52,892 nt of DNA from Promethearchaeota archaeon (GCA_048939015.1 JBHLPW010000036.1:1-52892), one strand, 5' to 3'. Positions 2,435-50,870 are shown, counted from the first letter of the stretch. Translations and numbers: made by a program. The notes: generated from the sequence alone by a model not told the origin.

Positions 2435-2863
2435 TTAAATTAAGTTATCTAAAATTCCTGAATTCTTAATAATTTCCATATGATCAAAAGCCAGCTCTAA
2501 AGAAGAAAGTTTTTGCAAAGAAACTATTTCTAGCTCAGCTGCATCATCTAAGGCTTTAGGTTTTTCTTTTTTTGTTAATGGTTCACAAAAAAAAGCAACA
2601 GTGACAGTATGCCCTCGTGGATCCCTTTTTGGATCGGAGAAAACACCAATTAGTTTTAGAATTTTCACGTTAATGTTTGTTTCCTCTTTTACTTCTCGAA
2701 TACAAGCATTCTCAACAGTTTCACCAATGTCAACAAATCCTCCAGGTAATGCATATTGCCCTTGAAAAGGAGGGTTTTTCCGACGGATTAATACAATATC
2801 TATTTTATTGTTTAGGAGGATTACAGCATCTACCGTTAAAAGTGGTGTAACTGGTTTGGGAAT
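2435..2863 (-). CDS. NUDIX hydrolase (ADP-ribose pyrophosphatase-like); probable ATT start
   Basis: The frame is open upstream of the track start (2668) and reads PKPVTPLLTVDAVI...LIRRKNPPFQGQYALPGGFVDIGETVENACIREVKEETNI (Nudix box), then SDPKRDPRGH and LAFDH. There is no ATG/GTG/TTG upstream of the box, and GAGGT precedes ATT at 2863. Confidence 0.85.
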   Translation of the reverse strand: MPKPVTPLLTVDAVILLNNKIDIVLIRRKNPPFQGQYALPGGFVDIGETVENACIREVKEETNINVKILKLIGVFSDPKRDPRGHTVTVAFFCEPLTKKEKPKALDDAAELEIVSLQKLSSLELAFDHMEIIKNSGILDNLI

Positions 2864-2886
2864 TTTATAAACCTCATTTATTTTAA

Positions 2887-3708
2887 TTATTCATCCCAAA
2901 CTTCCGATGCAAGTAAATGTTCGATTCGTGTTTTTCGAGGTCTAATAAACTCTGTATGATTTTCCTTTCGTTCCAATAATAAAGTCTTCTTAAGATTTAT
3001 TGAATCAACAATATATACTTCCAAATCTCCTTCTTTTAGAAAAATATGATTAAAACTAGGTGAATCATCAGCACGAACTTTATTTGAAGTTGAAGTGCCA
3101 CAGTAAAGAAAAGTAGTGTTTGAAGAATTCTTCCAAGAAATGGTATAAGCGTGAGGAACATGGCGATGACCCATTAGTACTAAATCTACTTCAAATAAAT
3201 TAGTAAACTCTAAAATTTCTCCCGCATCTCGGACTGTAGTAAATTTTTGTCCGGACATTGGAATTGGAATTAAATGGTGATGTAATGCTATTACTCTATC
3301 TTCTAAATTCCGGTTAAAGCATCTCCCCATCCAATCGAGTTGTTCATCACCAATTTCACCATGTGCAATATCGTCTCTAGCAGAGCAAACCCCTACTATA
3401 AGGGCATTTTTTTTTTCTAAAATAATTCTAGACCTTCTTGGTCCAATGATTTTTTCAAAAAATACGAGTCCTGAACTTTTAGCATCATGATTGCCAGGTA
3501 CTGCCATAAACCTAGTTATATCCTTTATTCTATTTATATATTGGACAGCATTTTTGAACTGAGTAACTCTTCCCTTATGAACAATATCTCCAGTGCAGAT
3601 TACAATGTCAGGATGAACATCATTGACATAATTAATAATATTTTCAATACAATCTTCTCGGAATTCACTTCCGTAGTGCAAATCGCTAATTTGTATGATT
3701 TCTACCAT
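2887..3708 (-). CDS. Calcineurin-like metallophosphoesterase (CpdA/Icc-like)
   Basis: SDLH, TGD, GNHD, HHH and GHRH metal-binding motifs. Confidence 0.9.
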   Translation of the reverse strand: MVEIIQISDLHYGSEFREDCIENIINYVNDVHPDIVICTGDIVHKGRVTQFKNAVQYINRIKDITRFMAVPGNHDAKSSGLVFFEKIIGPRRSRIILEKKNALIVGVCSARDDIAHGEIGDEQLDWMGRCFNRNLEDRVIALHHHLIPIPMSGQKFTTVRDAGEILEFTNLFEVDLVLMGHRHVPHAYTISWKNSSNTTFLYCGTSTSNKVRADDSPSFNHIFLKEGDLEVYIVDSINLKKTLLLERKENHTEFIRPRKTRIEHLLASEVWDE

Positions 3709-3869
3709 TTTTCAGCATCTCCTCATAATGAGGTTAAATTCTAAGAGAGAATTTCTATAATTTATAAATTTAATAATTAGTCCTAAATTTAAAATGTTTT
3801 TGATGAGATAAAAATCTTAAATAAAAACAATTAGATTGTGAAAATTAAGTTAAATAAAAAAAACAGGTT

Positions 3870-4052
3870 TTAATAATAGGTCTCTACACTGAGAGAATTA
3901 ATTGTTGTATCGAGATTCTGCTGTGATTTACGCTGTTCTGCTAATAATATTAGTGTGTTTTTATTATTACAATCAAAACAAACACCATTAACGTCTATAT
4001 AGCGTAATCCTCCACATTGTGGACAGTAAAACTCTTTAAATATAGGTTTCAT
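3870..4052 (-). CDS. Small zinc-ribbon protein
   Basis: CPQCGG...CFDC motif; ATG at 4052 (MKPIFKEFYC). Confidence 0.6.
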   Translation of the reverse strand: MKPIFKEFYCPQCGGLRYIDVNGVCFDCNNKNTLILLAEQRKSQQNLDTTINSLSVETYY

Positions 4053-4080
4053 ATTAGTTTTTCTCGTTAGATTTGTAATT

Positions 4081-4251
4081 TTAATATATATATTCAATTT
4101 GATTTAATTTGGTTAATTTTTCAATATCTTGCTTAATCTTTTCTATTATGAAATCAATAGATTTTTCGAGAGGAGTTCTAACAACCTTACTTTTTAATTG
4201 TATATAATCTTCTTTTTGATCTAATAAGTTCATTAGAATCTGATTAAACAT
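4081..4251 (-). CDS. Small hypothetical protein (56 aa, not in ORF track)
   Basis: ATG at 4251 to TAA at 4081 reads MFNQILMNLLDQKEDYIQLKSKVVRTPLEKSIDFIIEKIKQDIEKLTKLNQIEYIY. It is amphipathic-helix-like and co-oriented with its neighbours. Confidence 0.4.
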   Translation of the reverse strand: MFNQILMNLLDQKEDYIQLKSKVVRTPLEKSIDFIIEKIKQDIEKLTKLNQIEYIY

Positions 4252-4406
4252 GATATATATAGTTCTTTTATTCTCTTTAATTATTAATAAAAAATTTAGA
4301 GTTATAAGTGCTCTCGTTATATTATATAATGTCTATATAGACTATATAGAAAAAAATAGTTTTGAAAAATATTCTTTTAATTGTATTTTTACAATAAAAA
4401 ATGCTT

Positions 4407-6209
4407 CTATTTTGGTATTCCTTCTGAGTCCCATCCTCTTAACTTATAGTATTTTTTTAGCATTTCTTTAAGGGGTGGTATATTACCTTTTGTCCCTCCT
4501 TTAGGGATAGGAATTGAAAATCTTGATCCGATAGAATCATGGTTTTTTGTCATACCACATTTAATGTTGTATACTCTTTTTAAATTGAATAAATTTTCGC
4601 CAATTTTTACCCAATCTTCAACTGTATAGGTCCTACCTGTGATTGCATTAACTGCATCCACCCATGGCTTAATTTCACTAGAGTAAAAAAAGCCAAACAT
4701 ACATCCTCCTGTTGCTACATATGATTCGCAAGCATCTTGTAATTTTATAACTGCATTCATAACTTCCTCACCTACTGAGAAAGCGTCAATCCTTTCAGTA
4801 AGTCCCAGTTCTTTTTTAAAGTGAGTGGCAAATGATAAATGAAAAGGTTCATAACCATGATATGCCCCACGAGAAGAAGTAGTGAGATCTAAAGCTGTCA
4901 TATTATTCGAACGAGGTTCATGAGCAGGGACTTCAAGACCTTTTCCCTGGATATTAAGATCATCTGGTAAACTATATTTTTGGCAAAAAAGCCGAACACC
5001 ATCAGCCAAATCATTCCCAATCTCTTTTCGAAATGCAATTAATTTGATCAAATTTTCAATTGGAGCAGTAGTACTCCAAACAATATATTGATTTTTTTCA
5101 GGATCTTTTTCAAATCCTAACTTATTATGATCAATTTCAATTAATCCTCTCTCTACAGCTTCAAGAAAAACTCCAAGAACACCACCAAGAGATATACAAT
5201 CAATCCCTAGATCATTAACCATAATATTCCATCTAATTAAAGTTTCTAAATCATCCACGAATAAATTAGAGCCTAGCATTGCCAAGAATTCATATTCAGG
5301 CCATTCGACCCAAGTGTTATTATACTTAATTTTACCTCTACAAGCAGTCCAACAATTAAAACAGGAATAATGTTGTAATTCAAAGTTATCTTTTAATGCA
5401 TAAAATCCAATTTTTTTTGTTCCTTTCCATCGACTTAGAGTAAAGTTTTTAATTGGTACATCTCCTGCACTAACGTAATTATCCATATGTGCTAACGTAC
5501 CCACATCGTGCATTACTACAGATAGAGGGGCAGTTTTTGCTATTGTTCTTATTTTTTGGGCTGCATCCTTTAATTTTTCTTCATTAATGATTGGTACATC
5601 TTTAGTGCCACGTACTACTATTGCTTTTAGATTTTTACTGCCCATTACTGCACCCATGCCACAACGTCCGGCAGCATGACTTTTTTCACTCATTATTGAA
5701 GCGAAATTTACAAGATTTTCTCCTGCAGGCCCTATTGATGCAATTTTTATGTTCTCATCCCCGATTTCTTTCTTAAGTAAATCTTCTGTTTCTCGAGTTC
5801 CTTTACCCCACAATTTTGTTGCATTACGAATTTCAATTTTATCATTGTAAATCCATAAATAGACAGGTTTTTTACTTATTCCCTTAATGATAATATGATC
5901 ATAACCTGCTTTTTTCAATTCATTTCCAAAAAACCCTCCAGCAGAAGATTCTCCTAAAATCCTGGTTAAAGGAGATTTTGCCATGACAAAATATCTGCCA
6001 CAATATGGTACTGAAGTTCCACAAATGGGGCCTAAAGAAAAAATAAGGAGGTTTTGAGCATCTAATGGGTCAATATCAGGGGAGACTTCTTTGGTAAAGA
6101 TTGCAGCTGCTACACCAGCTCCACCTATGTATTTTTCTTTTAATTTGGGTTCTACAGTATCAATAGAAAAGTTCTCGGATTCTAAATCAATTCGTAATAT
6201 TTTTCCCAT
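4407..6209 (-). CDS. aor: Tungsten-dependent aldehyde:ferredoxin oxidoreductase family
   Basis: GKILRIDL, YIGGAG, KSPLT, SSAGG, IGPAGENLV, AAGRCGMGAVMGSKNLKAI, CFNCWTAC, PEYE, DLGIDCIS and YYKLRGWDSEGIP motifs. Confidence 0.92.
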   Translation of the reverse strand: MGKILRIDLESENFSIDTVEPKLKEKYIGGAGVAAAIFTKEVSPDIDPLDAQNLLIFSLGPICGTSVPYCGRYFVMAKSPLTRILGESSAGGFFGNELKKAGYDHIIIKGISKKPVYLWIYNDKIEIRNATKLWGKGTRETEDLLKKEIGDENIKIASIGPAGENLVNFASIMSEKSHAAGRCGMGAVMGSKNLKAIVVRGTKDVPIINEEKLKDAAQKIRTIAKTAPLSVVMHDVGTLAHMDNYVSAGDVPIKNFTLSRWKGTKKIGFYALKDNFELQHYSCFNCWTACRGKIKYNNTWVEWPEYEFLAMLGSNLFVDDLETLIRWNIMVNDLGIDCISLGGVLGVFLEAVERGLIEIDHNKLGFEKDPEKNQYIVWSTTAPIENLIKLIAFRKEIGNDLADGVRLFCQKYSLPDDLNIQGKGLEVPAHEPRSNNMTALDLTTSSRGAYHGYEPFHLSFATHFKKELGLTERIDAFSVGEEVMNAVIKLQDACESYVATGGCMFGFFYSSEIKPWVDAVNAITGRTYTVEDWVKIGENLFNLKRVYNIKCGMTKNHDSIGSRFSIPIPKGGTKGNIPPLKEMLKKYYKLRGWDSEGIPK

Positions 6210-6318
6210 AGTATAACCATCCTACTAATTAAAAATCCTATTAATATTACTATTGATTTGATTTATATTAAATTGTTTTTAACAATTGAAAAAAAACCAA
6301 TTCAATTATTTTTAAGAT

Positions 6319-7218
6319 TTAGAAATCGTTATAGTCAAAATCTGAGAAAAATGCTTTAATTTTCTCTTTTTTGTTATTAGAAATCCATTCAGTATGAGTG
6401 TATAGGGGTTTAATACCAATTTTTTCTGGTTTGGATAACCATAATGGATTATATGGTAAAAACCATATTTTCTTTATTTGTAAGGTTTTTAAGTAATTTG
6501 CAAGCACTTTTAAATTTTCTGATGTATCTGTTATATCAGGAATTAGTGGGATTCTTGGTAGCACTTTTTTATCTTGTTTTTTAATCAAAATTTCGAAATT
6601 TTCCAAAATTCGTTTATTAGAAACTTTACAATATTGAGCATGAAGCTTAGGATCTAATAATTTTAAATCAAAATAAATTAAATCGACGTATGGGTATATT
6701 AGTTCATCAAATTGGTTTTCATTATAAAATCCACATGTCTCAATGCATACATGGACCTCTTTTTTTTTAAGTTCTTTGAGTAGATTATGAACAAAATCCA
6801 TATATACGAGTGGCTCCCCTCCAGAAAGGGTGACCCCTCCACCAGAATTATCATAAAATATTTTATCTTTTAAGATAATATTCACTAGTTCTTCAACGGT
6901 ATAAGTTTCACCAACAAATTTTAAAGCATTATTGGGACAAAAATCTATACAATTACCACAAAGAGTACACAAACTTCGATCTATACGATATTTATAATCA
7001 AAATTAATCGCATTTTGAGTACATGCTTCTAAACATTTACCACATTCGACACACAGTTCTTTATCAAAATAGAGTTCAATAAAAGGAGATTTTGCTTCTG
7101 GATTTTGACACCAAACGCAAGAAAGAGGGCAACCTTTAAAAAAAATTAGAGTTCTAATTCCTGGACCATCATCTAGAGCATTTCTTTTGATATCTACAAT
7201 CAGTGTTTTTTCTATCAT
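6319..7218 (-). CDS. Glycyl-radical enzyme activating enzyme (radical SAM with 2x[4Fe-4S] ferredoxin insert)
   Basis: DGPGIRT, KGCPLSCVWCQNPE, CVECGKCLEAC, CTLCGNCIDFCP, GGGVTLSGGEP and IETCG motifs. Confidence 0.93.
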   Translation of the reverse strand: MIEKTLIVDIKRNALDDGPGIRTLIFFKGCPLSCVWCQNPEAKSPFIELYFDKELCVECGKCLEACTQNAINFDYKYRIDRSLCTLCGNCIDFCPNNALKFVGETYTVEELVNIILKDKIFYDNSGGGVTLSGGEPLVYMDFVHNLLKELKKKEVHVCIETCGFYNENQFDELIYPYVDLIYFDLKLLDPKLHAQYCKVSNKRILENFEILIKKQDKKVLPRIPLIPDITDTSENLKVLANYLKTLQIKKIWFLPYNPLWLSKPEKIGIKPLYTHTEWISNNKKEKIKAFFSDFDYNDF

Positions 7219-7263
7219 TATTTCAAGAATTTAAAATTAAAAAATAAAAATATGGGATATTTA

Positions 7264-10227: not shown

Positions 10228-10497
10228 CTTATTTCTCTTAATTCTATTTATGAATGGATAATAATAGTTATAATTAATCTGGTAATTATTTATATCTTTA
10301 GTTTAAATTTGAGGAATAAAGTTTATCAGTTTTAATACTTTTACAAGAAGGTTTGTTATATATTTATCTTTGGTTATGATCAAGAACAGTAGTTTTGTAT
10401 TATTTAAAAAAATAAGAAATTTCTGATAAAAAACCGTCTTAAAATAATCCCAAGAAGGTTGATTTAATTTTGGCTAATCTAATTTAAATTCTAAAAA

Positions 10498-11673
10498 TCA
10501 TATATTTAACATTCTAGTTAATTGTTCCACTCCTTGATCTGGATTATATAAAAGATGTGGGGTAGCAGAACTCGGTAAGATGGAAGTTTTTTCTGGGTAT
10601 CTTCCTGTAAAATTTACGACTATATTATTTGTATTTATTTTTTTAGCAGATTTAATCGCTCCACTGAACGCTATTAATCCACTTTTTTCCAGTTCGAAAA
10701 ATTTTAAAGCTAGATCAATTGTAGGATATATTCCTGCATCAACCAGTGTTTTTAAAATTAAATTTTTTTGATCATCAATTTCTTCTTGTGAAATTTTGAC
10801 AGCAATAACTTTTCCTCCATTTTTTCTCCATTGAATAAATTTTTCAATCGCGTATAGTGGTTTAGTGCTACCTAATGTGGTCTCAATATTAGAAGTTTCA
10901 TAATTCCATTTCTGAAAAATTTCAAAAGGATCATGGCCTAGTGAATGTTCATTTAAGGCATCGATTATTGGAGTAGTTTTACTATCAAAAGGCTGAACTA
11001 CTAATAATTCTGGATTTATATTATAAAATGATGCATATTCAATCACTCCAGCAGGACAAACTCCTCCTGATACTGTCTGAACAAAACAAACATCATCATT
11101 TAAAAGATTCATTTGATCTAACACAAAACCAACTTGACTATATGCAGCTGTTTTTAAATTTGCGTCTGCTAAAACTATATTAAACCGTTCTAACAATTTT
11201 TCTTTGAGTTTACTCGCAAATTCTCTTATACTATCTAATGTTGAATTTTTTAGAACAACGTAATATACATAAGGGTTATTCTCAATGGCGCTTTTAGAAA
11301 CTTTAAATGAGGAAATTTCCGGAACTAATAGAATAGCCTTAATTTTTTTTTTTGATTCTTGATTATACCTTTTTATAACGTTGGCCATACTTTCAACTGT
11401 ATTTCCAGAAGAAGTTGAGATAACAAAATCAATATCATACTCATCATAAACATGAAATAAGTATTGACAATCAGTATCCTTAAAAGTTGGAGTACTCCAA
11501 AAAAGACCATATAGATTTTTATTTGATATTAGATCAGGTAAATAAATAACAGAAACTGGAATAGTAGGAAAGTATTTAGAATTAATTTTTCTTCCAGTTA
11601 ATTTATAATATATTTTGTCACTTGATCTCCATTTATATCCACCAATATAACTTTCACAGATTTTTTTTTCCAT
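10498..11673 (-). CDS. Divergent PLP-dependent fold-type II enzyme (threonine synthase-like)
   Basis: PTFKD (PLP Lys), STSSGNT, TVSGG, LLVVQ and final VNFTG motifs. Confidence 0.7.
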   Translation of the reverse strand: MEKKICESYIGGYKWRSSDKIYYKLTGRKINSKYFPTIPVSVIYLPDLISNKNLYGLFWSTPTFKDTDCQYLFHVYDEYDIDFVISTSSGNTVESMANVIKRYNQESKKKIKAILLVPEISSFKVSKSAIENNPYVYYVVLKNSTLDSIREFASKLKEKLLERFNIVLADANLKTAAYSQVGFVLDQMNLLNDDVCFVQTVSGGVCPAGVIEYASFYNINPELLVVQPFDSKTTPIIDALNEHSLGHDPFEIFQKWNYETSNIETTLGSTKPLYAIEKFIQWRKNGGKVIAVKISQEEIDDQKNLILKTLVDAGIYPTIDLALKFFELEKSGLIAFSGAIKSAKKINTNNIVVNFTGRYPEKTSILPSSATPHLLYNPDQGVEQLTRMLNI

Positions 11674-11709
11674 AAATCACTTCACTATAATATTTTTATT
11701 ATTAAATAG

Positions 11710-16108: not shown

Positions 16109-16492
16109 TTATATATCTATTATTTTCAATTCTTTTTCAACACATTTGGATATTTTTTTAATAAAGTAATCAATCATGAAAGGTTTTTCAATAAAACTAA
16201 TAGCTCCTGTGAGGATAGCTTTATTTTTAATCGTAATATCAGAACTTATTATAATGATCTTAAGGTTTTGATCTATTTTTAACAACTCTTCTGTAACCTT
16301 TAATCCATCTTTAACAGGAAGGCGATAATCTATTAATATTATATCTGGTTTATTGTCTAATGTTCTAAATAACTCTAAAGCTTCTTGACCATTTCTTGCT
16401 ATTTCCAATATCTTATATTTATATATCTTAAAAATAGATCTATATAATTTAATTGTAGTCTCATCATCTTCAATAATAAATACTTTTCTTAT
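16109..16492 (-). CDS. Stand-alone response regulator receiver (CheY-like); probable ATA/ATT start
   Basis: The N-terminal KVFIIEDD acidic pocket lies upstream of the track's TTG. Also PDIILIDYRLPVKDG and FIEKPF. AGGGTG precedes ATT(16495)/ATA(16492). Confidence 0.88.
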   Translation of the reverse strand: MRKVFIIEDDETTIKLYRSIFKIYKYKILEIARNGQEALELFRTLDNKPDIILIDYRLPVKDGLKVTEELLKIDQNLKIIIISSDITIKNKAILTGAISFIEKPFMIDYFIKKISKCVEKELKIIDI

Positions 16493-16546: not shown

Positions 16547-17446
16547 TTAAACTTTAATTGGTTTTTCAAGTAGTTTTTCCTTAATAGTCCTATTTTTATT
16601 CTTCTCTTTTTTCTTTGATAAAACTTTTTTCATTGATAAAACTAAAGAAAGTTTTAATTCCTCAGCTAAGGAATTCAGTTTATTAGCAGTTGCTGAAATT
16701 TCCTCCATAGATGACGTTTGTTGTTCTGTAGAAGCACTTATTCCTTCCATTGAAGTTGTAGTTATCTGAATCTTTTTAATTATATCGTTAACTTTCGTTC
16801 CGGTATTTTTTACAGCACTTCTCGATTCCTCTGCAAGTTTTCTGACTTCATCTGCAACAACCGCAAATCCTCGTCCATATTCTCCCGCCCTCCCCGCTTC
16901 TATACTAGCATTTAATGCCAATAAGTTAATTTGTTCCGAAATATTTGTTATGATTGACATTATTCCACGGATTTCATCAGAAGAGGCTAATATTTGTTGA
17001 CTATCTTGTGAGATTTCTTGCGAAGTGTTTGCGATTTCTTCGGAAGCCGCATTTACTTCATTAGCACTTGCTGCTAATTCCGTTGACATATTTGATACAT
17101 TAATAGAATTTTCATTCGCAACATCAATAACTTTTTTTAAAGCGGTATATTGTTCTTCGATTACCTTAGATATGTAATATATTATTACAATAATCATAAT
17201 AATAAGAAGGGGAGCCGCTACAAAAACTGTTAAATTACTATTCTCAAGTATTGTATGTTGTAATGTTGAAACAGACGATACTACTCCAACCATGATTGAA
17301 AGTAAAATAGCTATTTTCAAAATTATTTTTGATTCGTACTTTTTCCATTTAAATAAAAGATAACAAAAACCAATAAGAACCAAGACAATAAAAGGAATTG
17401 TAGCTAATGAACTTATTAATTCATCAATTTCATTTTGAAATAAGAT
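16547..17446 (-). CDS. Membrane protein with methyl-accepting chemotaxis (MCP) signalling domain; probable ATC start
   Basis: [37 protein letters not shown] signature and about three N-terminal TM helices. The frame extends to ATC-TTA-TTT-CAA behind AGGT. Confidence 0.85.
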
Positions 17447-19132: not shown

Positions 19133-21028
19133 ATGACTAATATCAAACGTGAATTAGATGATCTATTGAAACGATATAAAGAATTAGAAGTTATAATAAA
19201 TAAAAGTCCTGTTGTCGTATTTCTTTGGAAAAATGAAGAAGATTGGCCAGTAGAGTTTGTTTCTGAAAATATTACACAATTTGGATATACTAGGGAAGAA
19301 TTTATGTCTGGTAAAATTAAATATTCTGAAATGATTTATCCAGAAGACTTAGAACGCGTAACAAAAGAGGTTGCAACATATTGCGAAACAAATTTAACAG
19401 AATTTACTCAAGAATATAGAATTTTTAATAAATCAAAAGAGATTTTATGGGTTGATGACAGAACCTTTATAAGAAGAAATTCTGATGGTGAGATTACCCA
19501 TTTCCAAGGAGTTATTCTTGAAATTACTGAAAAAAAAAAAATTCTTCAAGATTTAGAGAATTCTGAGAGAAAATTTAGAATGATTTCTGAACAAATATTA
19601 GTAGGCATTGGAATTATACAAGATGGAAAAATAGTATATGCCAATAAAAAAGCAGTTGAAATTTTTGGATATAGCTTAGAGGAAATGAAAAATTGGCTAC
19701 CTGGAGAGTTTGCTAAAACAATTCACCCTGATGATCTTAAACGTGAAGTAGAATATATAGATCAAATACAAACTGATCCAAATATAAATGAAATTCAATT
19801 TCGAACTAGAGGACTTAAAAAATCAGGTGAATTGTTTTGGGCAGATGCTCTTTTTAAAAAATTTATTCTCAATAATCGCCCAGCCCTTATAGGTATGTTT
19901 ATTGACATAACTGAAAGAAAAAAAGCAGAAAATGCTTTAAGGTTTACACAATTCACAGTGGATCATAGTTCTGAACCTGCCTTTTGGTTGGATGATCAAT
20001 TTAGTATCTTTTATGTAAATGAAGCAATGTGCAAATCATTAGGATACTCTCGTGAGGAATTGGTTAAAATGAAAGGTTTTGATATCAGCCCCAATTTTCC
20101 CAAAGATGCCTGGAGACCCACCTGGGAAAAAATCAAAGAAAAAGGATCAATTATTATAGAAACAGATCATCAAAAGAAGAATGGAGAATTCTTTCCCATT
20201 GAAGCATATATAAATTATATAAAATATGATAATAAAGAATATAATTGTATATTTGCTCGAGATATCAGTGAGCGAAAAGAATCTGAAAGGAAATTAAAAA
20301 AATCAGAAGAAAAATATCGTGAAGCATTCCATCGGGAGAATTTTTATAAAGATCTTTTTACTCATGATATGAGAAATATACTACAATCTATTTGTACATC
20401 ATTAGAGTTATATGAATTAAATTTTAAAAGTAAGACAGGAACAATACAAAATGATGAGTTCTTAGAAAATATCCATTCTCAAATAGATAGAGCAACTCAT
20501 TTAATTAATAATATTAAAAAGTTTTCCGACTTAGATTCTTTTGAGCAATCTTTAATTAGGATGAATATTTATCAAATAGTTCAGCAAATTATTAACAACA
20601 TCCAAAACTCATCAAAAAATAAAAGAATTTCAGTCAAAGTTGAACCAAATAATCAATCTAAGTTCTTAATTCTTGGTAATGAGCTTTTAAATGAAGCAAT
20701 TGAAAATATCTTACTAAATTCAATTATCCATAATGATAATGAAGAAGTTTTTATCTCAATTAGAATATTAAAAGTTTTAGGAGACGAAAAACCATTTATT
20801 AGAGTTGAATTTTCTGATAATGGAAGAGGAATTGAAGACTCAAGAAAAAAAATTATTTTCAATCGTGCTTATAATCAGAATAAATCAACAATAGGAATGG
20901 GCTTAGGTTTATCACTAGTAAAAAAAATTATAGAAAACCTTGATGGTTTAGTTTGGGTAGAAGATAGAATTACAAATGACTATAAACAGGGATCCAAATT
21001 CATTCTATTACTACCTGAGGTGGATTGA
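19133..21028 (+). CDS. Cytoplasmic multi-PAS sensor histidine kinase
   Basis: Three PAS/PAC repeats (YPEDLE, HPDDLK, ...DITERK), H-box THDMRNILQ, N-box ENILLNSIIH, DNGRGI and GMGLGL. Confidence 0.93.
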   Translation: MTNIKRELDDLLKRYKELEVIINKSPVVVFLWKNEEDWPVEFVSENITQFGYTREEFMSGKIKYSEMIYPEDLERVTKEVATYCETNLTEFTQEYRIFNKSKEILWVDDRTFIRRNSDGEITHFQGVILEITEKKKILQDLENSERKFRMISEQILVGIGIIQDGKIVYANKKAVEIFGYSLEEMKNWLPGEFAKTIHPDDLKREVEYIDQIQTDPNINEIQFRTRGLKKSGELFWADALFKKFILNNRPALIGMFIDITERKKAENALRFTQFTVDHSSEPAFWLDDQFSIFYVNEAMCKSLGYSREELVKMKGFDISPNFPKDAWRPTWEKIKEKGSIIIETDHQKKNGEFFPIEAYINYIKYDNKEYNCIFARDISERKESERKLKKSEEKYREAFHRENFYKDLFTHDMRNILQSICTSLELYELNFKSKTGTIQNDEFLENIHSQIDRATHLINNIKKFSDLDSFEQSLIRMNIYQIVQQIINNIQNSSKNKRISVKVEPNNQSKFLILGNELLNEAIENILLNSIIHNDNEEVFISIRILKVLGDEKPFIRVEFSDNGRGIEDSRKKIIFNRAYNQNKSTIGMGLGLSLVKKIIENLDGLVWVEDRITNDYKQGSKFILLLPEVD

Positions 21029-21399
21029 TAATACCAAATATATTCATTGTTGAAGATGACCTAAATATTGTAAAATTATATATTAATGCTTTACAGGTTT
21101 TTGGACATATAGTAGTTGGGTGTGCATATGATGGAATGGAAGCAATTTTAAAATTTAAAGACTTTATGACAAAGCCAGATCTAATAATTATGGATCATCG
21201 AATGCCAATTAAAAATGGTATAGATACAATGAAAGAGATTTTAGAAATAGAACCTAATATGAAAATCATTTTTGCTAGTGCAGATATTCAAATTAGAGAT
21301 ATTGCCATGAAAGCAGGGGCAATAAGTTTTCAGGAAAAACCCTTTTCCATAATACAATTAAAAGAAAAAATTAATAAAGCTTTAGATCCGAAAGGTTAA
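21025..21399 (+). CDS. Stand-alone response regulator receiver
   Basis: IFIVEDD, PDLIIMDHRMPIKNG, FASA and EKPF motifs; overlaps the kinase stop codon. Confidence 0.93.
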   Translation: MIIPNIFIVEDDLNIVKLYINALQVFGHIVVGCAYDGMEAILKFKDFMTKPDLIIMDHRMPIKNGIDTMKEILEIEPNMKIIFASADIQIRDIAMKAGAISFQEKPFSIIQLKEKINKALDPKG

Positions 21400-37440: not shown

Positions 37441-38400
37441 TCAGTGTTTGAATTTAAGTTTTTTTCTTAGATCTCCTACTGTTGTTTTCAATTCTGCGTA
37501 TACGTTATGGGGATGTATGCTCTCAAAAGATTCAATTTTAAATTTTACTTTAAAATCATCTTCAAGATTGGGAAAATCTCTTAGCATGAAATTTTTTGCC
37601 ATTTCTCTTATAACATCTTCAGAAAAAAGAGGCTTTAAATGCGCACTTCTTATTAATTCGGCTTCTTCTGGTCTTTTTAAAACGGATTGAATTTTACCAC
37701 TCATAGATTGTTCTATAACATCAATAATATCTAAAACATCTACTTTATGATTAGTAAGGTCTCTTATTTGGATGATTATTGATCCAATAGATCTTTGATT
37801 ATGTGAAGAAAAGGGAAGTAAATTAAGCAATTTATTGAGATCTTCTTCAGAAACATTAATATCTTTTCTAGATTTAACGATTTCTTCAGCATATTCCAAA
37901 GAAAGTTCTTTAGCACAAGGACAGACCGTCATGCCAACTGCACTAGCACCTATAAAATAATTATAATCAATATTACCTAAAATATCTCGAACTGCTTTTA
38001 CAAAAGAGCTAATATCATATGATTTTTGAATAGTCCTTTCATCATTTTCTCTCACTTGAACAACAATCTTACCTTCTAGTTTTACTTCAGCTTTAGAAGT
38101 ATAAGGGTGTCGTTCCATTAATTTCTTTACAATTCTATCTCCAACAACTTCAATAGTAGGAGTAGGTTTGAAAATTACCTCATTAATTACTTCTTCTATT
38201 GTTTCCGAAGTTCGGGACATGTGAATTCCACGTTGCTGAGCCGGAAGATTGATTAACGCAGATATTTTAGGGTAAAAAGAAAATTTTTTATTCTCTTGAA
38301 CAATTTCAACTTTTTTTTCCAATTCTACAATACCAACCTTGTCAATTGGAATATCTATACTAGAATCAGAATCTTGCAAATCCGTTTTAAATTTTGTAAT
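37441..38400 (-). CDS. mptA: GTP cyclohydrolase MptA (FolE2 family); probable ATT start
   Basis: RGIHMSR, GMTVCPCA, SHNQR, LKRPEE, FSEDVIR and ESIHPHN motifs. The N-terminal DxQ motif (TDLQD) begins upstream of the track's TTG. Confidence 0.88.
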   Translation of the reverse strand: MTKFKTDLQDSDSSIDIPIDKVGIVELEKKVEIVQENKKFSFYPKISALINLPAQQRGIHMSRTSETIEEVINEVIFKPTPTIEVVGDRIVKKLMERHPYTSKAEVKLEGKIVVQVRENDERTIQKSYDISSFVKAVRDILGNIDYNYFIGASAVGMTVCPCAKELSLEYAEEIVKSRKDINVSEEDLNKLLNLLPFSSHNQRSIGSIIIQIRDLTNHKVDVLDIIDVIEQSMSGKIQSVLKRPEEAELIRSAHLKPLFSEDVIREMAKNFMLRDFPNLEDDFKVKFKIESFESIHPHNVYAELKTTVGDLRKKLKFKH

Positions 38401-42547: not shown

Positions 42548-42588
42548 GATCTTTTTCTGTTAAAAAAAACTAGTTAAATTTTTATTTA

Positions 42589-44454: not shown

Positions 44455-44628
44455 ATTATCTACCTATTTGAAAATCATAAGAGTATGCTATATAAGTTTA
44501 GGAATTATTTAAATTTCTACTCATGGCATTAGTATTATTCTTATTGAAATATCTCCAATATAGTTTAGTTTTGGAGATTACAATTGTATAGACAAAATTT
44601 ATTAAATTTTTCAGTTTTAAACCAAAGT

Positions 44629-46527
44629 ATGGGAAATAGGAGAAAAAATCTTTTAGTTATTGGTATAGATCAGGCAATACCTTATCTTCTGAAAAAATTC
44701 ATTAAAGAAGGTCTAATTCCCAACATTGCTCAACTTGCAGAAACAGGTGTGATGGGAGAAGCACTTCCATGTGCTCCATGCGACACACCTACAAATTGGA
44801 CGACCATAGCAACTGGTGCAACTACGGCAGTCCATGGTGCAACAAGTTTTTATATGCATTTACCTGGAGAACCTTTAAATCAAGGACTAGAACTGCGATC
44901 TAGAACTCAACTCTCACGATATTGTAAAGCGGAGTATTTTTGGGATGTAGCTGATAGAGCTGGGTATATCCCTTTCGTAACTAATTATCCTGGAGGATGG
45001 CCAAGATATTTTAATAAGGGAGCAATGAGTCTTTTCACATGGTCAATTCCTGAATCACTACCAAGAATGTTAGAACGGTCATCTATCTATTCTTTCAATT
45101 TAAATTCAGAAGATTCCTCAATTCATTTAGTAAAAATAAAAGAAAATAAGAATCAAAATAATTCACCACTTTTACAAGCAACAATATATTTAAAAACTAA
45201 AGAGATAAGAAATCAACGATTAATTGAATTTTATCTTTTTGACTCTAAAGGGAAAGGATATGATATGGTTAAATTCTCTACAAAAGATAAAGGTGAATTA
45301 GAGTATTTAAATATAAATGAATGGAGTGATTGGATAATAAGAGATTTGGATACTGTTTTTGGTATTTTACCATGTCTGTTTAAATTAAAAGCTTTAAATT
45401 TAGACCCAGAAGGAAATTCATTTAAAATTCAAATATCAAGTATCTATAATACCAAAGGATGGGCTACACCAGAGAGTTTTGGAAAAAAAATTGTCGAAAA
45501 TGTGTTCAAATATGATTTACCGAAAAAACAGAAAATAGAGTTTATGATTTATGGTAATATAAATAAATTTTTGTCTTCAGCAAAACAAGAGAGTTTAACA
45601 CTAGCAAATTCTATAAAATTTGCGCATAAGGAATTAAATTGGGATGTTTGCTTTTTTCATTATCATCATATAGATAGCATTAATCATACAACACTTGCCT
45701 ATTTAGATAAAAATTCCCCTATTTATACGGAAAAGAAAGAAGAAAAATCATGGGAATATGTTAAGCAAATTTATTTAATAGTTGATGAGTTGGTAGAAAA
45801 TTTAGTAAAATCTTGTGTAGATGAGAATACAGTCATAATTTTTATTTCTGATCATGGAGCTGTCCCAATTTGGAAGATAGTTGATATACCATTAGCTTTT
45901 GCTAAAGCAGGTTTAACTAAGTATAAATTAGATTCTAGAAGAAAAAAGTATTTAATTGATTGGGAGAAATCAGTTGCATTTCCTTATATGGAACCTCCTT
46001 TTATATGGATAAATCTTAAAAATAGAGATCCTCATGGAATTGTTAGTCAAACTGAATATGAAGATGTTAGAAATCAAGTTATTGAAACATTAGAAAATCT
46101 AAAAGATCCAGAAACCAATCAATCAGTTATCCAATCCGTTTTTAAAAGAGAAGATGCTGGAGATCTGGGTTTAGATGGTGAAAGAATAGGAGATTTAATA
46201 TATTTTTTGAAACCCCCTTATGGGATTTTTGATGGGAGTCTAAATGCTATAAATGCTTCAAGTTTATCTCAAAATTACTTTAGCAAATCAATCGTTAATG
46301 ACTCTAAAAAGTTTTTTGGAGCTCATGCTTATTATCATCCTAACGCTAAACTTGGTGATTATACTGTTAGTGCTCCATTAATTTTTAATGGTCCTGGTAT
46401 AAAAAAGGGGATTGAATTAAATAAAATAGTAAATCTAACCGATATTGCTCCCACATTAGCCTATCTTCTCCAAATACCGAAACCGGCACAATCCCAGGGA
46501 AAGATTATTGGTGAAATTCTTGAATAA
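44629..46527 (+). CDS. Alkaline phosphatase superfamily, type I phosphodiesterase/nucleotide pyrophosphatase
   Basis: IGID, DTPTNWTTIATG (Thr nucleophile), D..NH, ISDHG, INLKNRDP and DIAPT motifs. Confidence 0.85.
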   Translation: MGNRRKNLLVIGIDQAIPYLLKKFIKEGLIPNIAQLAETGVMGEALPCAPCDTPTNWTTIATGATTAVHGATSFYMHLPGEPLNQGLELRSRTQLSRYCKAEYFWDVADRAGYIPFVTNYPGGWPRYFNKGAMSLFTWSIPESLPRMLERSSIYSFNLNSEDSSIHLVKIKENKNQNNSPLLQATIYLKTKEIRNQRLIEFYLFDSKGKGYDMVKFSTKDKGELEYLNINEWSDWIIRDLDTVFGILPCLFKLKALNLDPEGNSFKIQISSIYNTKGWATPESFGKKIVENVFKYDLPKKQKIEFMIYGNINKFLSSAKQESLTLANSIKFAHKELNWDVCFFHYHHIDSINHTTLAYLDKNSPIYTEKKEEKSWEYVKQIYLIVDELVENLVKSCVDENTVIIFISDHGAVPIWKIVDIPLAFAKAGLTKYKLDSRRKKYLIDWEKSVAFPYMEPPFIWINLKNRDPHGIVSQTEYEDVRNQVIETLENLKDPETNQSVIQSVFKREDAGDLGLDGERIGDLIYFLKPPYGIFDGSLNAINASSLSQNYFSKSIVNDSKKFFGAHAYYHPNAKLGDYTVSAPLIFNGPGIKKGIELNKIVNLTDIAPTLAYLLQIPKPAQSQGKIIGEILE

Positions 46528-46536
46528 AAAATCAAT

Positions 46537-47031
46537 TTAATTAATTATCTTAATACGAATTTTAAGACTCAATACCAAAGCTAATATTCCAGCTATTAAT
46601 TGTAAAAAAATTGCGATACTAGGCCAGTAGTAATTGACACCCCAAAAAGTTGGATAATCCCTTACTAGAGTATAAATAATTTGCCATGAAATTATGAGGA
46701 AAAGAGGGGAAATTATCATCACAATTCCTCCAATCATATAATACCTTGCCCATATTTCTAATCTTTTTTTCGGTTTTAAGCTGGTAAATAGGAATAAAAC
46801 GGAAGTTGCCATTATCAGAATTAAAATAATGACTGCTGGAATTAAAAATTCTATTTCTGTGTCATATACGATACCAATTTCGTTTGAATTTAAACCAAAA
46901 TACATAACAGAACCCCATAGCCAAAATTGGTATATAAAATTCGCACTTATGTGAAAAATTACTGGTGTAAAAATTGAAATAATTCCAATTATTCCAGAAA
47001 AAAATAACAGTTTAAAATGAAATTCTACCAT
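46537..47031 (-). CDS. Hypothetical membrane protein (~4 TM)
   Basis: Several long hydrophobic segments. Confidence 0.7.
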   Translation of the reverse strand: MVEFHFKLLFFSGIIGIISIFTPVIFHISANFIYQFWLWGSVMYFGLNSNEIGIVYDTEIEFLIPAVIILILIMATSVLFLFTSLKPKKRLEIWARYYMIGGIVMIISPLFLIISWQIIYTLVRDYPTFWGVNYYWPSIAIFLQLIAGILALVLSLKIRIKIIN

Positions 47032-47149
47032 GATCTTTACGAACTTTTGTGTTATATTTTATTTAAGTTCGATGATCATAATTTTAAAAACTAATAAAAT
47101 TATTTTTTGACTAAAAATTAGAATTAATATTAAAATAATAAAGAAAGAA

Positions 47150-47449
47150 GTGGTGTTAACAATTCCACTAACCTTAATTGCAACCGTTCGAGTGAAAAAT
47201 GGAAATATGGAAGAAGCAATTGAAGCTTTAAAAGAAATTGTCCCAAAAATAAAAGAATCAGAACCAGGATGTTTACAGTACATTCCTCATACGATAAAGG
47301 GTGATGAAAATTCAATCATTTTTTATGAAGTCTATACTGATTCTGATGCATTGAAAGAGCATAATAAAAATTTAGGTAAGAATATGGCAAAATTAAGTCC
47401 TTTGCTAGAACCTGGAATGGATTTAAAGATCTGTCGTGAAATTCTTTAA
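47150..47449 (+). CDS. Antibiotic biosynthesis monooxygenase (ABM)-like dimeric barrel
   Basis: EPGCLQY, IIFYEVYTDSDALKEH motifs. The start may be ATT at 47162, with GTGGTG acting as SD. Confidence 0.8.
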   Translation: MVLTIPLTLIATVRVKNGNMEEAIEALKEIVPKIKESEPGCLQYIPHTIKGDENSIIFYEVYTDSDALKEHNKNLGKNMAKLSPLLEPGMDLKICREIL

Positions 47450-47463
47450 TAAAAATTTTTTTT

Positions 47464-49035
47464 TTATTCATCTTGAATATAGGGTTTTCCAAGAAATAAG
47501 CAAATTTCAGCTTTTTTCAATTCTCTACCTAGATAATTTAAGTGATACATGTCATTAGTTAAGCCATTTTGAATTATCTTTTTGCTTAAAGTTTCTGCAC
47601 TCTCTCCAATAAAAGTTTGAAGTAAATTATCTTCATTTGAGTAGAAAAGAACATAAATTTTCCTCGAATAATGATTTATATAAATTCTAAAATAACCCAT
47701 TGAATCAGGAATATAATTAGTAATAAGCCCATTCATGACAATTGCATTTTCTTCATTTATTTTTGGCATTTCTTGATTTATTTTTTCTTTAGCTTTAAAA
47801 ATTTGGATACCTTGATTGATAGGGGGTGTTTTTTTATGTTTTGCTAGGTAATTTAACTTTATACTTTCTTTTAATTCTCTTACTCCTCCCATTAGTTTTG
47901 TACTATGTTCAACAGTAAAAACAATTCCCATGTCCAGTTCAACAGCGATACTAGCTAAAAGCCCATTAATTCCAACTGAGTCTATATCCATTAACTCTAC
48001 TACATTTGAAATTCCAAAAAACATTGGTAATTCATGATTTTCATACTTATCTTCTTTAGCTTTCTTATCGTAAAGAAAGTAAGCTTCTAAAGAATTGCAG
48101 ATTCCTGGATTAATTGGTGTTTCTAGTAATGGGTCAGCTATTAATTTCTTGAATCCATTGTTGAACAACTCTTTTGTTAACTTAAATAGATTTTCAACAC
48201 GAGATTTAGGATCTTTAGGAAAATAAAATTGTTTAACATTCGTGGGAAGTATGACAATAGGAATGTTTTTAGGAAGATTTAACATTTCTTCATAATTGCC
48301 GAGATCTAAGCTTAAAATTATATCTATATTTTCATGTACTGCAGCATAAATTTCTTCTGGAACCATTGAATCAATACTAATCAAAACATCATGCTTAGAT
48401 CTGATTAAATTAATTATCTCTTTGATTCTATCTGGGTTTGGCTTATTAGCCACACATCCAATATCTATAATATCCGCTCCAGAATTGATATAATGTATTG
48501 CCTTTTTAAGAATATGTTCATCGCTTTTTTCAGTACAATTAACAATCTCAGCGATAATTGGAGGTGGCATATTCCTTCCAATTATGATATTAGATTTTTT
48601 TTCATTAAGATAATATGTATGAGTACCTAACTCTTTTTTTGCCACTTCTAATTGCTTATTTACAATATCTGAATATTCACTTATTCCAGAAATTTCCAAT
48701 AATCTATTTGCGGGCATTGTATTTGATAATTTTAAATGATCCAAATTTTTTAGAGTAATAGACAAATCAGAGGCAAATTCAGGTCCTTTTCTAATTTTTA
48801 TTGAATATTTTTCCTCTAAATGAATAGAATCCCATTGGACAAAACCAGGTAATAATATCAAATCATAATTTGAAATTTCTATCTGATCCAAGAGATTAGT
48901 TGTGATAGATTGCGTAAGAAAGGCAGAAATAGAGATTGGTGCTTTTATGGTTTTTATCTTATGCTCTTTTATGGGTTTAACAATCTTTTCTATAGTTTCA
49001 TAACTCTGTTCGCCAGTTATTATAAGGATTCTAAT
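47464..49035 (-). CDS. Dihydropteroate synthase-like protein with C-terminal DUF4346-type domain; ATT start
   Basis: N-terminal RILIITG...SAFLT...YDLILLPG, IAEIV, GADIIDIG, SIDS, IADPLL, NVVELMDIDSVGINGLL, DSMGYFRI and HLNYLGRELKKAE motifs. Confidence 0.85.
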   Translation of the reverse strand: MRILIITGEQSYETIEKIVKPIKEHKIKTIKAPISISAFLTQSITTNLLDQIEISNYDLILLPGFVQWDSIHLEEKYSIKIRKGPEFASDLSITLKNLDHLKLSNTMPANRLLEISGISEYSDIVNKQLEVAKKELGTHTYYLNEKKSNIIIGRNMPPPIIAEIVNCTEKSDEHILKKAIHYINSGADIIDIGCVANKPNPDRIKEIINLIRSKHDVLISIDSMVPEEIYAAVHENIDIILSLDLGNYEEMLNLPKNIPIVILPTNVKQFYFPKDPKSRVENLFKLTKELFNNGFKKLIADPLLETPINPGICNSLEAYFLYDKKAKEDKYENHELPMFFGISNVVELMDIDSVGINGLLASIAVELDMGIVFTVEHSTKLMGGVRELKESIKLNYLAKHKKTPPINQGIQIFKAKEKINQEMPKINEENAIVMNGLITNYIPDSMGYFRIYINHYSRKIYVLFYSNEDNLLQTFIGESAETLSKKIIQNGLTNDMYHLNYLGRELKKAEICLFLGKPYIQDE

Positions 49036-50125
49036 CTATATCACTTATCAATTTGTCTTTATCAAATGGAATAAAAATATCATCTAAAATTGAACCATTT
49101 GCTTCTTTTATTTTTAAGTTAGTTACTATAGGTTCGAATCTACCACCTAATATTCCATCGGCTATAAAAGCGGCACCTTGAGCTGCACGTTTTGCTATTT
49201 GGCTAAATGATTTCATAACTCTTACAGGTGCAACATCACTTAAACCTTTAATCATTATATCTCGTAAATATGGTAGATTTGCTCCTCTTCCTGCTAATAA
49301 TACTTCTTTGATTTTTTCTTTTGATGAAAATGAGGAAGATATTCCAAAAACAGCCTTTTTCACACTAGATAAATAAGCTTTTAATGCAACCTTAGTTTGT
49401 TCATCTTTTTCAGCTAAAAGTGTTATTTCTTTCAAGCTTAAATCCGAATAGCCAGAAATATATGCTACTCCACCTTTGTAAATATTTTTCTTATGAATAG
49501 TTTTAATTAAATAGGCTAATTCTCCATCAAGACTACCACAGGCTCTAAAACCCATTATATTACTTCCTCCAATCCCATCGATTATTTGTCCATTTTCAAT
49601 TGCTAAAACCGCTGTAAATCCATACCCTATCTCAACTAAAATAAAATTGGTATTCTCTGGACCAACTCGTAATTTTTCCATTTGATCTCTTATTCCCGTA
49701 ACAGTCGTGCAAATCTTATCTGCTGTACCCATATCAATTTTATTAATTTTTCGATACTTTGGAACGGTGGGTAAATGCTTGACTCCAGGAACAATGATAC
49801 CTGAAATCTTTTGAGCTTTGATAAGTCTTAAAACTTCACCAAGACCAACTAATTTATCTTTGTCTTTTTGATCAAATTTTAATAATGTAAAAAAAATATC
49901 CTGCTCCGTTAAATCTTTTACGTCTTTTAAAGGAAGTCCAAATCCACTCGGAGCTACCATTAGATCAATATCCTTTACAGAATTAATTATAGTAATTGCT
50001 TTCTGAGGATTAGCGATTAGTTCTTTAGTTGGTAGAGAAGTATCAAGAATTGTTTTATTATCCTCCAAACCGAAGAAGTCCCATGATAAACTGCCAGGAT
50101 CTATACCCAGAACTCTTTTAACCAT
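49031..50125 (-). CDS. DUF1464 family ASKHA-fold (butyrate/sugar kinase-like) protein
   Basis: LGIDPGS.SWD, APSGFG, PGVKHLPTVP..RKINKIDMGTADK, IDGIGG, GSLDGELAY and AAQGAA.IADG..GG motifs. Confidence 0.85.
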   Translation of the reverse strand: MVKRVLGIDPGSLSWDFFGLEDNKTILDTSLPTKELIANPQKAITIINSVKDIDLMVAPSGFGLPLKDVKDLTEQDIFFTLLKFDQKDKDKLVGLGEVLRLIKAQKISGIIVPGVKHLPTVPKYRKINKIDMGTADKICTTVTGIRDQMEKLRVGPENTNFILVEIGYGFTAVLAIENGQIIDGIGGSNIMGFRACGSLDGELAYLIKTIHKKNIYKGGVAYISGYSDLSLKEITLLAEKDEQTKVALKAYLSSVKKAVFGISSSFSSKEKIKEVLLAGRGANLPYLRDIMIKGLSDVAPVRVMKSFSQIAKRAAQGAAFIADGILGGRFEPIVTNLKIKEANGSILDDIFIPFDKDKLISDID

Positions 50126-50339
50126 TTCAAAGATTAAATTTATTAATACATTTTAGAAGATTCTATAATTCTTTTTATATTCTATTTTTTTTTAATAATT
50201 GCTTTTAAAATGTAAAATTTTTAAAAATTAACTTGAAACTATAAAAACAGTGCAAATTTTTAATATTTCAACATAAGAATGAATTCTTATACTAAGTTGT
50301 AAGAGAATAAAAAAAGGATTTTATAAGTGGTGAAAAAAG

Positions 50340-50870
50340 ATTTTTGTTAAAGTTTTTGTTTGTAAGATATGTGGAGAAGCTTATATTGGAGAAGAAGAAC
50401 CAAGCCGATGCCCTTTTTGTGGTGCTTTCAAAAAATATTTCGTAGAATCGACAGAATATGATGATACAGGAGCTTGGGATGTTGAACTAAGCGAAAAAGA
50501 TAAAGCCAATGTAGAAAAAGCTTTAGAAGTTGAGGTGTCGAACAATATCTTTTATAAATGTGCAAGTAATAAGACACCGGAATTAGATGGTCAAAAAATA
50601 TTCAAAATTCTGGCAAAAGTAGAAGCTGAACATGCTGCCGTGTGGAAGAAAATATTAAAGCTAGATAAAGTAGAATTCCCAAAATATGATAAATGTGCTA
50701 CCAAATATACTCCAAATTTAGAAGAATCTCATAGTAGGGAGGACAGAGCAATAAAATTTTATGGACAAGCAGCTGCTGAAGCCCAAAATTCGAGAGTAAA
50801 AGAAATATTTGAAGCTTTTGTAGAAGTTGAAACAGACCATCTCCATCTCTCAGAAGCGAGATTAAAATAA
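50340..50870 (+). CDS. Rubredoxin-ferritin-like fusion (reverse rubrerythrin-type); probable ATT start
   Basis: In-frame upstream FVCKICGE...PSRCPFCGA; diiron motifs EAEH, EDRAIKFY and ETDH. In-frame TGA at 50331-50333. Confidence 0.85.
   Translation: MFVKVFVCKICGEAYIGEEEPSRCPFCGAFKKYFVESTEYDDTGAWDVELSEKDKANVEKALEVEVSNNIFYKCASNKTPELDGQKIFKILAKVEAEHAAVWKKILKLDKVEFPKYDKCATKYTPNLEESHSREDRAIKFYGQAAAEAQNSRVKEIFEAFVEVETDHLHLSEARLK

Follow-up and report, generated by a model that had tools for sequence, protein, structure and literature searches.

Near-cognate start codons in described systems

Translation initiation at codons that differ from AUG in the third base is known from bacteria, where the infC (IF3) and pcnB genes of E. 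coli start at AUU or AUA behind a Shine-Dalgarno (SD) sequence, and ATT, ATC and ATA are alternative initiators of NCBI translation table 11. Near-cognate starts are limited in E. coli to a handful of genes. In turn, ATA, ATT and ATC starts are common in mitochondrial codes, and mitochondrial tRNA-Met carries 5-formylcytidine at position 34 (f5C34). Here we present evidence that these three codons are regularly used as starts in a genus of uncultured, Lokiarchaeia-type Asgard archaea (Promethearchaeota), of which 24–30 species genomes were sampled. The starting point was a window of 52,892 nucleotides (nt) (GCA_048939015.1, JBHLPW010000036.1:1-52892), by which we mean the whole stretch of DNA analyzed; it represents one contig (C5) of a metagenome-assembled genome (MAG) of 4.86 Mb and 125 contigs, with 30% G+C, 94.9% completeness and 6.5% contamination. 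Throughout the text, ATH denotes ATT, ATA or ATC (AUH in mRNA), and canonical starts are ATG, GTG and TTG.

The starts described below share with those of infC and pcnB the third-base near-cognate nature of the codon, its position at start distance behind an SD sequence and, presumably, its decoding by the initiator tRNA. They differ in frequency, as we estimate that 2–6% of genes are concerned here vs. a handful in E. coli, and ATA and ATT are as SD-associated here as GTG. In mitochondria, unlike here, start selection is not SD-led, tRNA-Met is modified, and ATA is often reassigned to methionine in elongation; our analysis was not aimed at such a reassignment and gave no hint of it. The near-cognate type of start is thus known from bacteria, and what is new is its frequency, its conservation and its link to a homolog of eIF1 in an Asgard lineage.

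For Asgard archaea, a full-text literature search, which did not cover subscription journals, found no systematic description of ATH starts, only a remark on the single "rare ATT start codon" of the tubulin AtubA in a Heimdallarchaeial (Kariarchaeaceae) MAG, in a 2026 paper (PMC13394414). As in some of our cases, a deposited Asgard protein was truncated there: it lacked its first beta strand, which is restored by an upstream ATT at a plausible distance from a ribosome-binding site (PMC13394414). However, AtubA is one case recognized from structure prediction, whereas the starts reported here are systematic, conserved between species and quantified genome-wide.

ATH starts in the window and their conservation in the genus

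We listed every stop-to-stop frame of the window together with its first canonical start codon, and translated and Pfam-scanned six frames for which a first-pass annotation, made from the sequence alone, had proposed ATH starts. Its estimate that this concerns five or six of about 50 genes was borne out, the window containing ~48 long open reading frames (ORFs), and the coordinates of all six sites proved correct as regards the codons, the SD motifs and the upstream in-frame stops; we add that the dihydropteroate synthase (DHPS)-like gene, for which no strand had been given, lies on the minus strand. At each of the six sites an SD sequence is positioned 5–8 nt upstream of the ATH codon (4 nt for the GTGAT of the DHPS-like gene). 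All six genes exceed the curated Pfam gathering cut-offs (NUDIX, Response_reg, MCPsignal, GCHY-1, Pterin_bind/PterinBD-DUF4346, and Rubrerythrin with RUBY_RBDX), and in four of them (NUDIX, receiver, DHPS-like and rubrerythrin) the domain begins upstream of any canonical start. As estimated from composition at 30% G+C, a non-coding codon is neither a stop nor a canonical start with a probability of ~0.876, so that runs of 46–74 codons devoid of both are very unlikely to arise by chance (2e-3 to 6e-5 each); the runs found here additionally carry Pfam domains.

The gene encoding a GTP cyclohydrolase of the FolE2/MptA family (37441..38400, minus strand; GCHY-1 match 1.4e-59) would start at ATT 38400-38398, preceded by the SD motif GGTGG (38411-38407) and by a TGA six codons upstream. 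The first canonical codon, at codon 12 of the frame, is TTG 38379, seven codons downstream of the ATT, and from it the public call on the window contig derives a protein of 312 amino acids (aa). Across 29 species we found TGGTG(A/G/T), 6 nt and then ATT in 28 cases and ATA in one, with TAA directly before the ATT in four species. The x-K-F-K peptide that follows the start is conserved with synonymous changes. In turn, the codon before D-L-Q varies freely between species (ATG, TTG, ACA, ACG, ATA, AAA, AAG or TCG), which leaves no conserved canonical start downstream.

The DHPS-like pterin-binding protein (47464..49035, minus strand) is predicted to start at ATT 49035-49033, directly after an in-frame TAG and behind an SD-like GTGAT (49044-49040). 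In addition to Pterin_bind and PterinBD-DUF4346, it shows a weak DUF6513 match at residues 3–86 (16.7 bits vs. a cut-off of 23.9); canonical codons are absent from the frame before a TTG at codon 48. ATT directly follows TAG or TAA in each of 15 species. The upstream neighbor is a DUF1464 gene, whose TAG stop (49033-49031) overlaps the ATT as ATTAG. This overlap, with GTGAT 4 nt upstream, is retained in all 15 species (window 49031-49044 and L022-L035), an arrangement consistent with translational coupling of the two genes.

The rubrerythrin gene with an N-terminal rubredoxin-like domain (50340..50870, plus strand) is likewise predicted to start at ATT (50340-50342), the TGA of its SD motif GGTGA (50329-50333) being at the same time the in-frame stop. 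RUBY_RBDX and Rubrerythrin match residues 8–36 and 59–171, respectively. The frame is devoid of ATG, and its sole canonical codon is a GTG at codon 67. Among 20 congeners, which share 67–93% protein identity, 17 have ATT as the start, two have ATG and one has ATA; the distance to the conserved GGTGA, whose TGA closes the frame, is nearly constant (~two codons in most species). The public call on the window contig is a 111-aa fragment from the GTG that has lost the whole rubredoxin-like domain; in relatives, gene callers often choose internal GTG valine codons of the first strand.

The NUDIX hydrolase gene (2435..2863, minus strand) has its putative ATT start at 2863-2861, separated by a 7-nt spacer from GAGGT (2875-2871), with an in-frame TGA at 2893-2891. 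The Pfam match (1.6e-24) covers residues 19–141 of the stop-to-stop frame, and the domain thus begins far upstream of the first canonical codon, a GTG at codon 74. When 25 congeneric orthologs were aligned, the codon before P-K-P-V-T-P-L-L was ATG in 23, ATT in the window genome and ATC in one (L038); in the near-identical sister of the latter (L039), ATG stands in the same context. The public call comprises 151 aa and begins at an ATA directly after the stop.

As for the single-domain CheY-like receiver (16109..16492, minus strand; Response_reg 5.8e-20 at residues 22–132) and the membrane-bound methyl-accepting chemotaxis protein (MCP), no direct orthologs were found in 30 congeners, only paralogs with 40–50% identity. 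The comparison of starts is therefore based on paralog alignments, in which counts are not independent because many paralogs are orthologous to one another. The Response_reg domain of the receiver begins well upstream of the first canonical codon, a TTG at codon 46. The first-pass annotation had left the choice between ATT 16495 and ATA 16492; both codons are present behind GGGTG (16505-16501), but ATA 16492-16490 is most likely the start since it occupies the start position of the paralogs, three codons before strand beta-1. In 29 parsed paralogs of the genus this codon is ATA in ~17–18 cases, ATG in eight, TTG in one, ATT in one and unclear in one, with an SD sequence 6–8 nt upstream. ATA is the commonest start codon among the single-domain receivers of the genus (~17–18 of 29 loci). 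The public call (142 aa) begins at an ATT upstream of the receiver's own SD sequence.

The MCP gene (16547..17446, minus strand; MCPsignal 5.4e-30) has a candidate ATC start at 17446-17444 behind AGGT (17457-17454), and its first canonical codon, a TTG at codon 26, lies within the first hydrophobic helix. The MCP paralogs share an N-terminal x-[LIV]-F-Q motif, in which the first codon is ATG (three cases), GTG, TTG, ATA, ATT or, in the window MCP, ATC. An alternation of ATG with ATH codons behind an SD sequence, which the first-pass annotation had proposed to look for among orthologs, was hence observed in the NUDIX, rubrerythrin, receiver and MCP families.

These alignments bear on two other readings of the six sites. 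An assembly or sequencing error that changed ATG to ATT, ATA or ATC could be suspected in a MAG of 125 contigs and 6.5% contamination. Nevertheless, the same codons occupy the same positions in 15–29 independently assembled genomes of the genus, including single-contig ones, which leaves this explanation a vanishingly small probability; the persistence of ATT in independently assembled MAGs in which the neighboring codons vary excludes both such errors and recent start loss or pseudogenization. The second reading takes the downstream ATG, GTG or TTG codons for the true starts, or the genes for decaying ones, and the upstream segments for untranslated relics of lost ATG starts. Gene callers indeed took such codons for rubrerythrin and MptA, and the NUDIX ATT, derived from the ATG of 23 of 25 relatives, would alone resemble the loss of a start codon. 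Yet with initiation downstream, the Nudix box and the acidic pocket of the receiver would be lost, rubrerythrin would be deprived of its entire rubredoxin domain and the DHPS-like protein of 48 residues, although the upstream segments are conserved at the protein level, with synonymous changes, over 15–29 species, as is ATT itself. Moreover, the SD sequences are located at start distance from the ATH codons and at least 20 nt from the downstream ones. Translation from the downstream codons is thus already disfavored, and we consider it very improbable.

The public calls also qualify the expectation of the first-pass annotation that standard annotation would truncate proteins of this lineage. 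Two proteins are indeed cut (rubrerythrin and MptA), whereas two are over-extended (NUDIX and receiver): for these the public annotation did use non-canonical starts, ATA and ATT, respectively, at positions supported neither by an SD sequence nor by the relatives.

Genome-wide SD signal

We scanned the whole MAG, selected 3,976 non-overlapping long frames and scored SD sequences as 5-mers of the usual archaeal AGGAGGTGATC complement. ATG starts show an enrichment of G at positions −14 to −8. When any 5-mer of AGGAGGTGATC was accepted at spacings 4–11, an SD sequence preceded 4.9% of ATT, 5.1% of ATA and 6.3% of ATC codons vs. 2.5% of pooled control codons, and out-of-frame ATH triplets were not enriched (0.9–2.1%). 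This test was set aside as confounded, since SD-like 5-mers also occur within coding sequence, at ~4% and always in the same codon phase, and a spacing-resolved test took its place. Inside genes, the SD 5-mer occurs only at spacings 2, 5, 8 and 11 and is nearly absent at 1, 4, 7 and 10 (~0.5 per 1000), and ATG starts display a broad peak at spacings 5–8. In-frame ATH codons that precede the first canonical start show an SD peak at spacing 7, which reaches 17.4 per 1000 vs. 2.25 for control codons and 0.53 for the coding interior.

In the strict form of the test (spacing 6–7), SD sequences were found before ATA at 26.5 per 1000 (p 3e-17) and before ATT at 20.7 per 1000 (p 3e-14), against a baseline of 3.4 per 1000 for all other codons pooled. 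The values for the canonical starts were 49 per 1000 for ATG (p 2e-73), 57 for TTG (p 6e-35) and 19.8 for GTG (p 1e-4); ATA and ATT are thus about as SD-associated as GTG. ATC, at 5 per 1000 (2/380), has far less genome-wide support than ATA and ATT. The 72 ATH matches of the strict test are distributed over 44 contigs; their median distance is 2 codons from the preceding stop and 18.5 codons from the first canonical codon downstream. Neither ACG nor CTG, considered as further start codons and rejected, is enriched in SD sequences in the MAG (ACG 3/76 and CTG 6/97 in the broad test, CTG 1/97 in the strict one). Among the canonical codons, TTG, which comes first in ~800 long frames, matches ATG in the strength of its SD association (57 vs. 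49 per 1000), GTG being much weaker (20).

The codon specificity of this signal is relevant to a further explanation, namely that ribosomes arriving from an upstream ORF re-initiate at whichever codon lies at the right distance, the ATH identity being incidental. Such a process would suit the DHPS-like gene, whose ATT overlaps the upstream TAG in all 15 species, and the NUDIX gene, whose start follows the stop of the upstream gene by 24 nt. However, other codons remain at background at SD spacing (3.4 vs. 20–27 per 1000 for ATT and ATA), and the rubrerythrin, MptA, receiver and MCP genes follow intergenic regions rather than an upstream ORF. Codon-independent re-initiation is accordingly a highly unlikely account of the ATH starts.

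Size of the ATH-started gene set

The excess of SD-preceded ATH codons sets a floor of ~85 genes. As a second approach, a two-component mixture based on codon usage was applied to those frames in which the first canonical start is preceded by at least 20 codons; of these 346 frames, ~129 have a coding-like upstream segment. The mixture was preferred to a classifier, likewise based on codon usage, whose 95% threshold was set on "intergenic" windows and which showed poor discrimination owing to a contaminated negative set. As canonical codons make up ~3.3% of coding codons, roughly half of the ATH-started genes would show such a long gap, and the ~129 segments would accordingly correspond to ~250 genes (~6%). 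The codon-usage and SD data together suggest that at least 85 genes (~2%), and probably ~130–250 (3–6%), start at ATH. In the coding-like group, 43% of frames have an ATH codon with a 5-mer SD sequence vs. 14% of ATG starts (~3-fold), which suggests a greater dependence of ATH starts on a strong SD sequence.

Distribution among Asgard archaea

The same script was run on sampled regions of other genomes, with spacings 5–8 as the broad test. In another member of the genus (G006, 400 kb) ATH codons reached 43 per 1000 vs. 17 for the control (p 0.006; strict test p 0.003). A weaker signal was obtained for a single-contig genome of 31% G+C from another family of the order (G032, 800 kb), with 22 vs. 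12 per 1000 (p 0.08; strict test p 0.01). In two genomes of other Asgard classes (400 kb each) the difference was not significant in either test, the broad values being 25 vs. 23 per 1000 in G102 and 28 vs. 18.5 in G126; this absence of ATH enrichment refers to small samples of 178–199 ATH codons each. Both genomes use SD sequences heavily (209–228 per 1000 for ATG) and yet show no ATH enrichment, which indicates that the SD test does not itself create the ATH signal. The trait is hence strong in the genus but not shared by Asgard archaea in general, and it is less pronounced in another family of the order.

Other candidate ATH starts in the window

A second CheY-like receiver (21031..21399, plus strand; Response_reg 2.5e-18 at residues 8–119) is a possible seventh, ambiguous case. 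The region (window 21019-21399) reads GAGGTGGA TTG ATA ATA, the SD sequence GAGGTGGA standing just upstream of three potential starts, TTG 21025, ATA 21028 and ATA 21031. The last is separated by 8 nt from GGTG and stands three codons ahead of beta-1, as the paralog starts do, and TTG 21025 lies only 2 nt after GGTG. Similarly ambiguous is a gene for an ABM-family monooxygenase (47162..47449, plus strand; region 47111-47449), with a possible ATT start at 47162, 6 nt behind GTGGTG. The Pfam match (1.4e-14) extends from residue 20 of the stop-to-stop frame, placing the domain onset two residues after the ATT, and the GTG codons at 47150 and 47153 may either be starts themselves or serve as the SD sequence for ATT 47162.

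The aIF1 gene and its ATT start

We found that the gene for aIF1 (SUI1 family, PF01253) itself starts at ATT in all 28 readable members of the genus, including contig C27 of the window genome. The single-contig congener G006 (L101) is not among these 28, as its locus shows a run of N over the N-terminal part of the gene. The locus reads TTG TGA TAA, two codons and then ATT, with the CxxC zinc knuckle five codons further. The N-terminus given by the ATT appears to be natural, because residue 5 of the ATT-started protein aligns to residue 3 in the structure of M. jannaschii aIF1 (4mo0). In the rest of the class, the aIF1 start is ATT or ATC (same family), ATA (f5) or TTG (f2 and f6), and in other Asgard classes it is mostly ATG, with ATA behind AGGAGG in two families. 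Sorted by family (L185-L205 and L230-L259), ATA was observed in f5, f14 and f20, behind GGTGAT or AGGAGG, possibly CTG in f9, GTG in f15, GTG in one member of f10 and ATG in another, and ATG in f13, f17, f18, f19 and f26.

The AUU start of the IF3 gene gives rise to autoregulation, eIF1 is autoregulated through a poor start context, and aIF1 of S. solfataricus rejects AUU mRNA in vitro (PMC4705826). Given these precedents and the ATT start of aIF1, an infC-like feedback of aIF1 through its own start codon is a reasonable suggestion by analogy. The situation resembles infC in that the gene of a fidelity factor itself uses AUU. It differs in that the factor is aIF1, the homolog of eIF1, rather than IF3, and that the autoregulation is one we infer. 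With eukaryotic eIF1 (PMC4705826), in turn, it shares a homologous factor whose gene has a weak start, the use of which is expected to rise when the factor is scarce. Yet, the weakness resides there in a poor Kozak context around AUG and here in the ATT codon, in an SD-led rather than a scanning system.

Initiator tRNA and the nature of ATH starts

Taken together, initiation at AUU, AUA and AUC, led by an SD sequence, is very probably real and constitutes a regular minority mode in the genus. The proposal of the first-pass annotation that this lineage initiates at AUN codons is thereby supported in substance for ATT and ATA, and occasionally for ATC, by orthologs and by a genome-wide SD signal that is specific in frame and spacing. 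Several points weigh against this reading. The anti-SD underlying our scores was assumed, as the MAG is without the 16S 3' end; ATC fails the strict genome-wide SD test (2/380); and MptA and the DHPS-like gene have no relative with ATG at the start site (among 29 and 15 species, respectively), i.e., no ATG alternation. TTG 38379 of MptA would retain nearly the whole GCHY-1 domain, all but its first residues, so that by domain content MptA, with a TTG only seven codons after ATT, is the weakest of the six cases, and not the MCP gene as initially proposed. The size of the gene set, put at between 85 and several hundred, hinges on SD usage among ATH starts; in a MAG with 6.5% contamination, frameshifted or fragmentary genes may account for some of the ORFs whose upstream segments look coding. 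Finally, the initiator tRNA was not found in the MAG by ARAGORN with and without introns (13–18 tRNAs), by Rfam (20 tRNAs) or by an anticodon-arm pattern.

With only 13–20 tRNAs detected, the tRNA set of the MAG is poorly recovered or intron-rich; ARAGORN predicted a tRNA-Pyl (cta) when introns were allowed and a tRNA-SeC (tca) when they were not. An exact pattern revealed an initiator-like tRNA in four of 31 genus members. That of one congener (G010; L207:1470-1580, plus strand) shows A1/U72, an anticodon stem with three G:C pairs, a CAGGG-CUCAUAA-CCCUG arm and the anticodon CAU. It carries a ~30-nt insertion in the T arm and is not called by ARAGORN.

This tRNA is relevant to the possibility of dedicated decoding, in which the initiator tRNA, or a second one, would bear a modified C34 that truly pairs with AUA, AUU and AUC, on the model of mitochondrial f5C34, making them efficient starts. 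The SD association of ATA and ATT at the level of GTG agrees with this idea, as does the lineage-specific occurrence of the trait, which would be expected from the gain of a tRNA modification; furthermore, the three codons share their first two bases with AUG and depart from it solely at the base facing position 34. On the other hand, the anticodon stem-loop of the G010 tRNA is ordinary, though DNA hides modifications, a strong SD sequence is ~3 times as frequent at ATH as at ATG starts, and ATT persists instead of being replaced by ATG; the latter two features fit weak starts. We therefore regard a modified C34 as unlikely.

With weak AUH starts, initiation could proceed as follows. The SD duplex (GGTGA-like, ~6–8 nt upstream) would position the small subunit at AUU, AUA or AUC, and a standard initiator tRNA with the anticodon CAU would pair with the codon despite the third-position mismatch, so that the protein would presumably begin with methionine. 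Such starts would be weak, leaning on a strong SD sequence more often than ATG, and their long-term retention in particular genes may reflect tuned low expression. A decrease in aIF1 would enhance AUH initiation and thereby aIF1 synthesis, and this loop might set the translation of all AUH-started genes. The relaxed start-codon discrimination put forward in the first-pass annotation is one candidate mechanism; tuned, factor-controlled weak starts would fit at least as well, because ATT is retained over long periods, SD dependence is ~3-fold stronger and aIF1 itself starts at ATT. Tentatively, the family might represent a low-stringency lineage in which AUA and AUU are used routinely, on par with GUG, and in which a self-sensing aIF1 governs an AUH regulon of a few hundred genes.

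Implications for Asgard archaea

Gene callers limited to ATG, GTG and TTG would truncate or miss a few percent of the proteins in this genus, and mis-called starts distort the inventory of domains and the predicted structures of precisely those archaea on which reasoning about the origin of eukaryotes mostly draws. Prokaryotic and eukaryotic initiation differ centrally in the fidelity of start-codon choice, and this lineage possesses the eukaryote-type factors aIF1, aIF1A and aIF2 yet uses near-cognate codons behind SD sequences. It may thus offer a natural system for examining how e/aIF1 sets stringency and whether feedback through factor levels predates eukaryotes. As the trait varies between related lineages, a comparison of their initiation factors and initiator tRNA could locate its cause. 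If the proposed AUH regulon exists, it would give a close relative of eukaryotes an archaeal counterpart of the control exerted through infC in bacteria and through eIF1 in eukaryotes.

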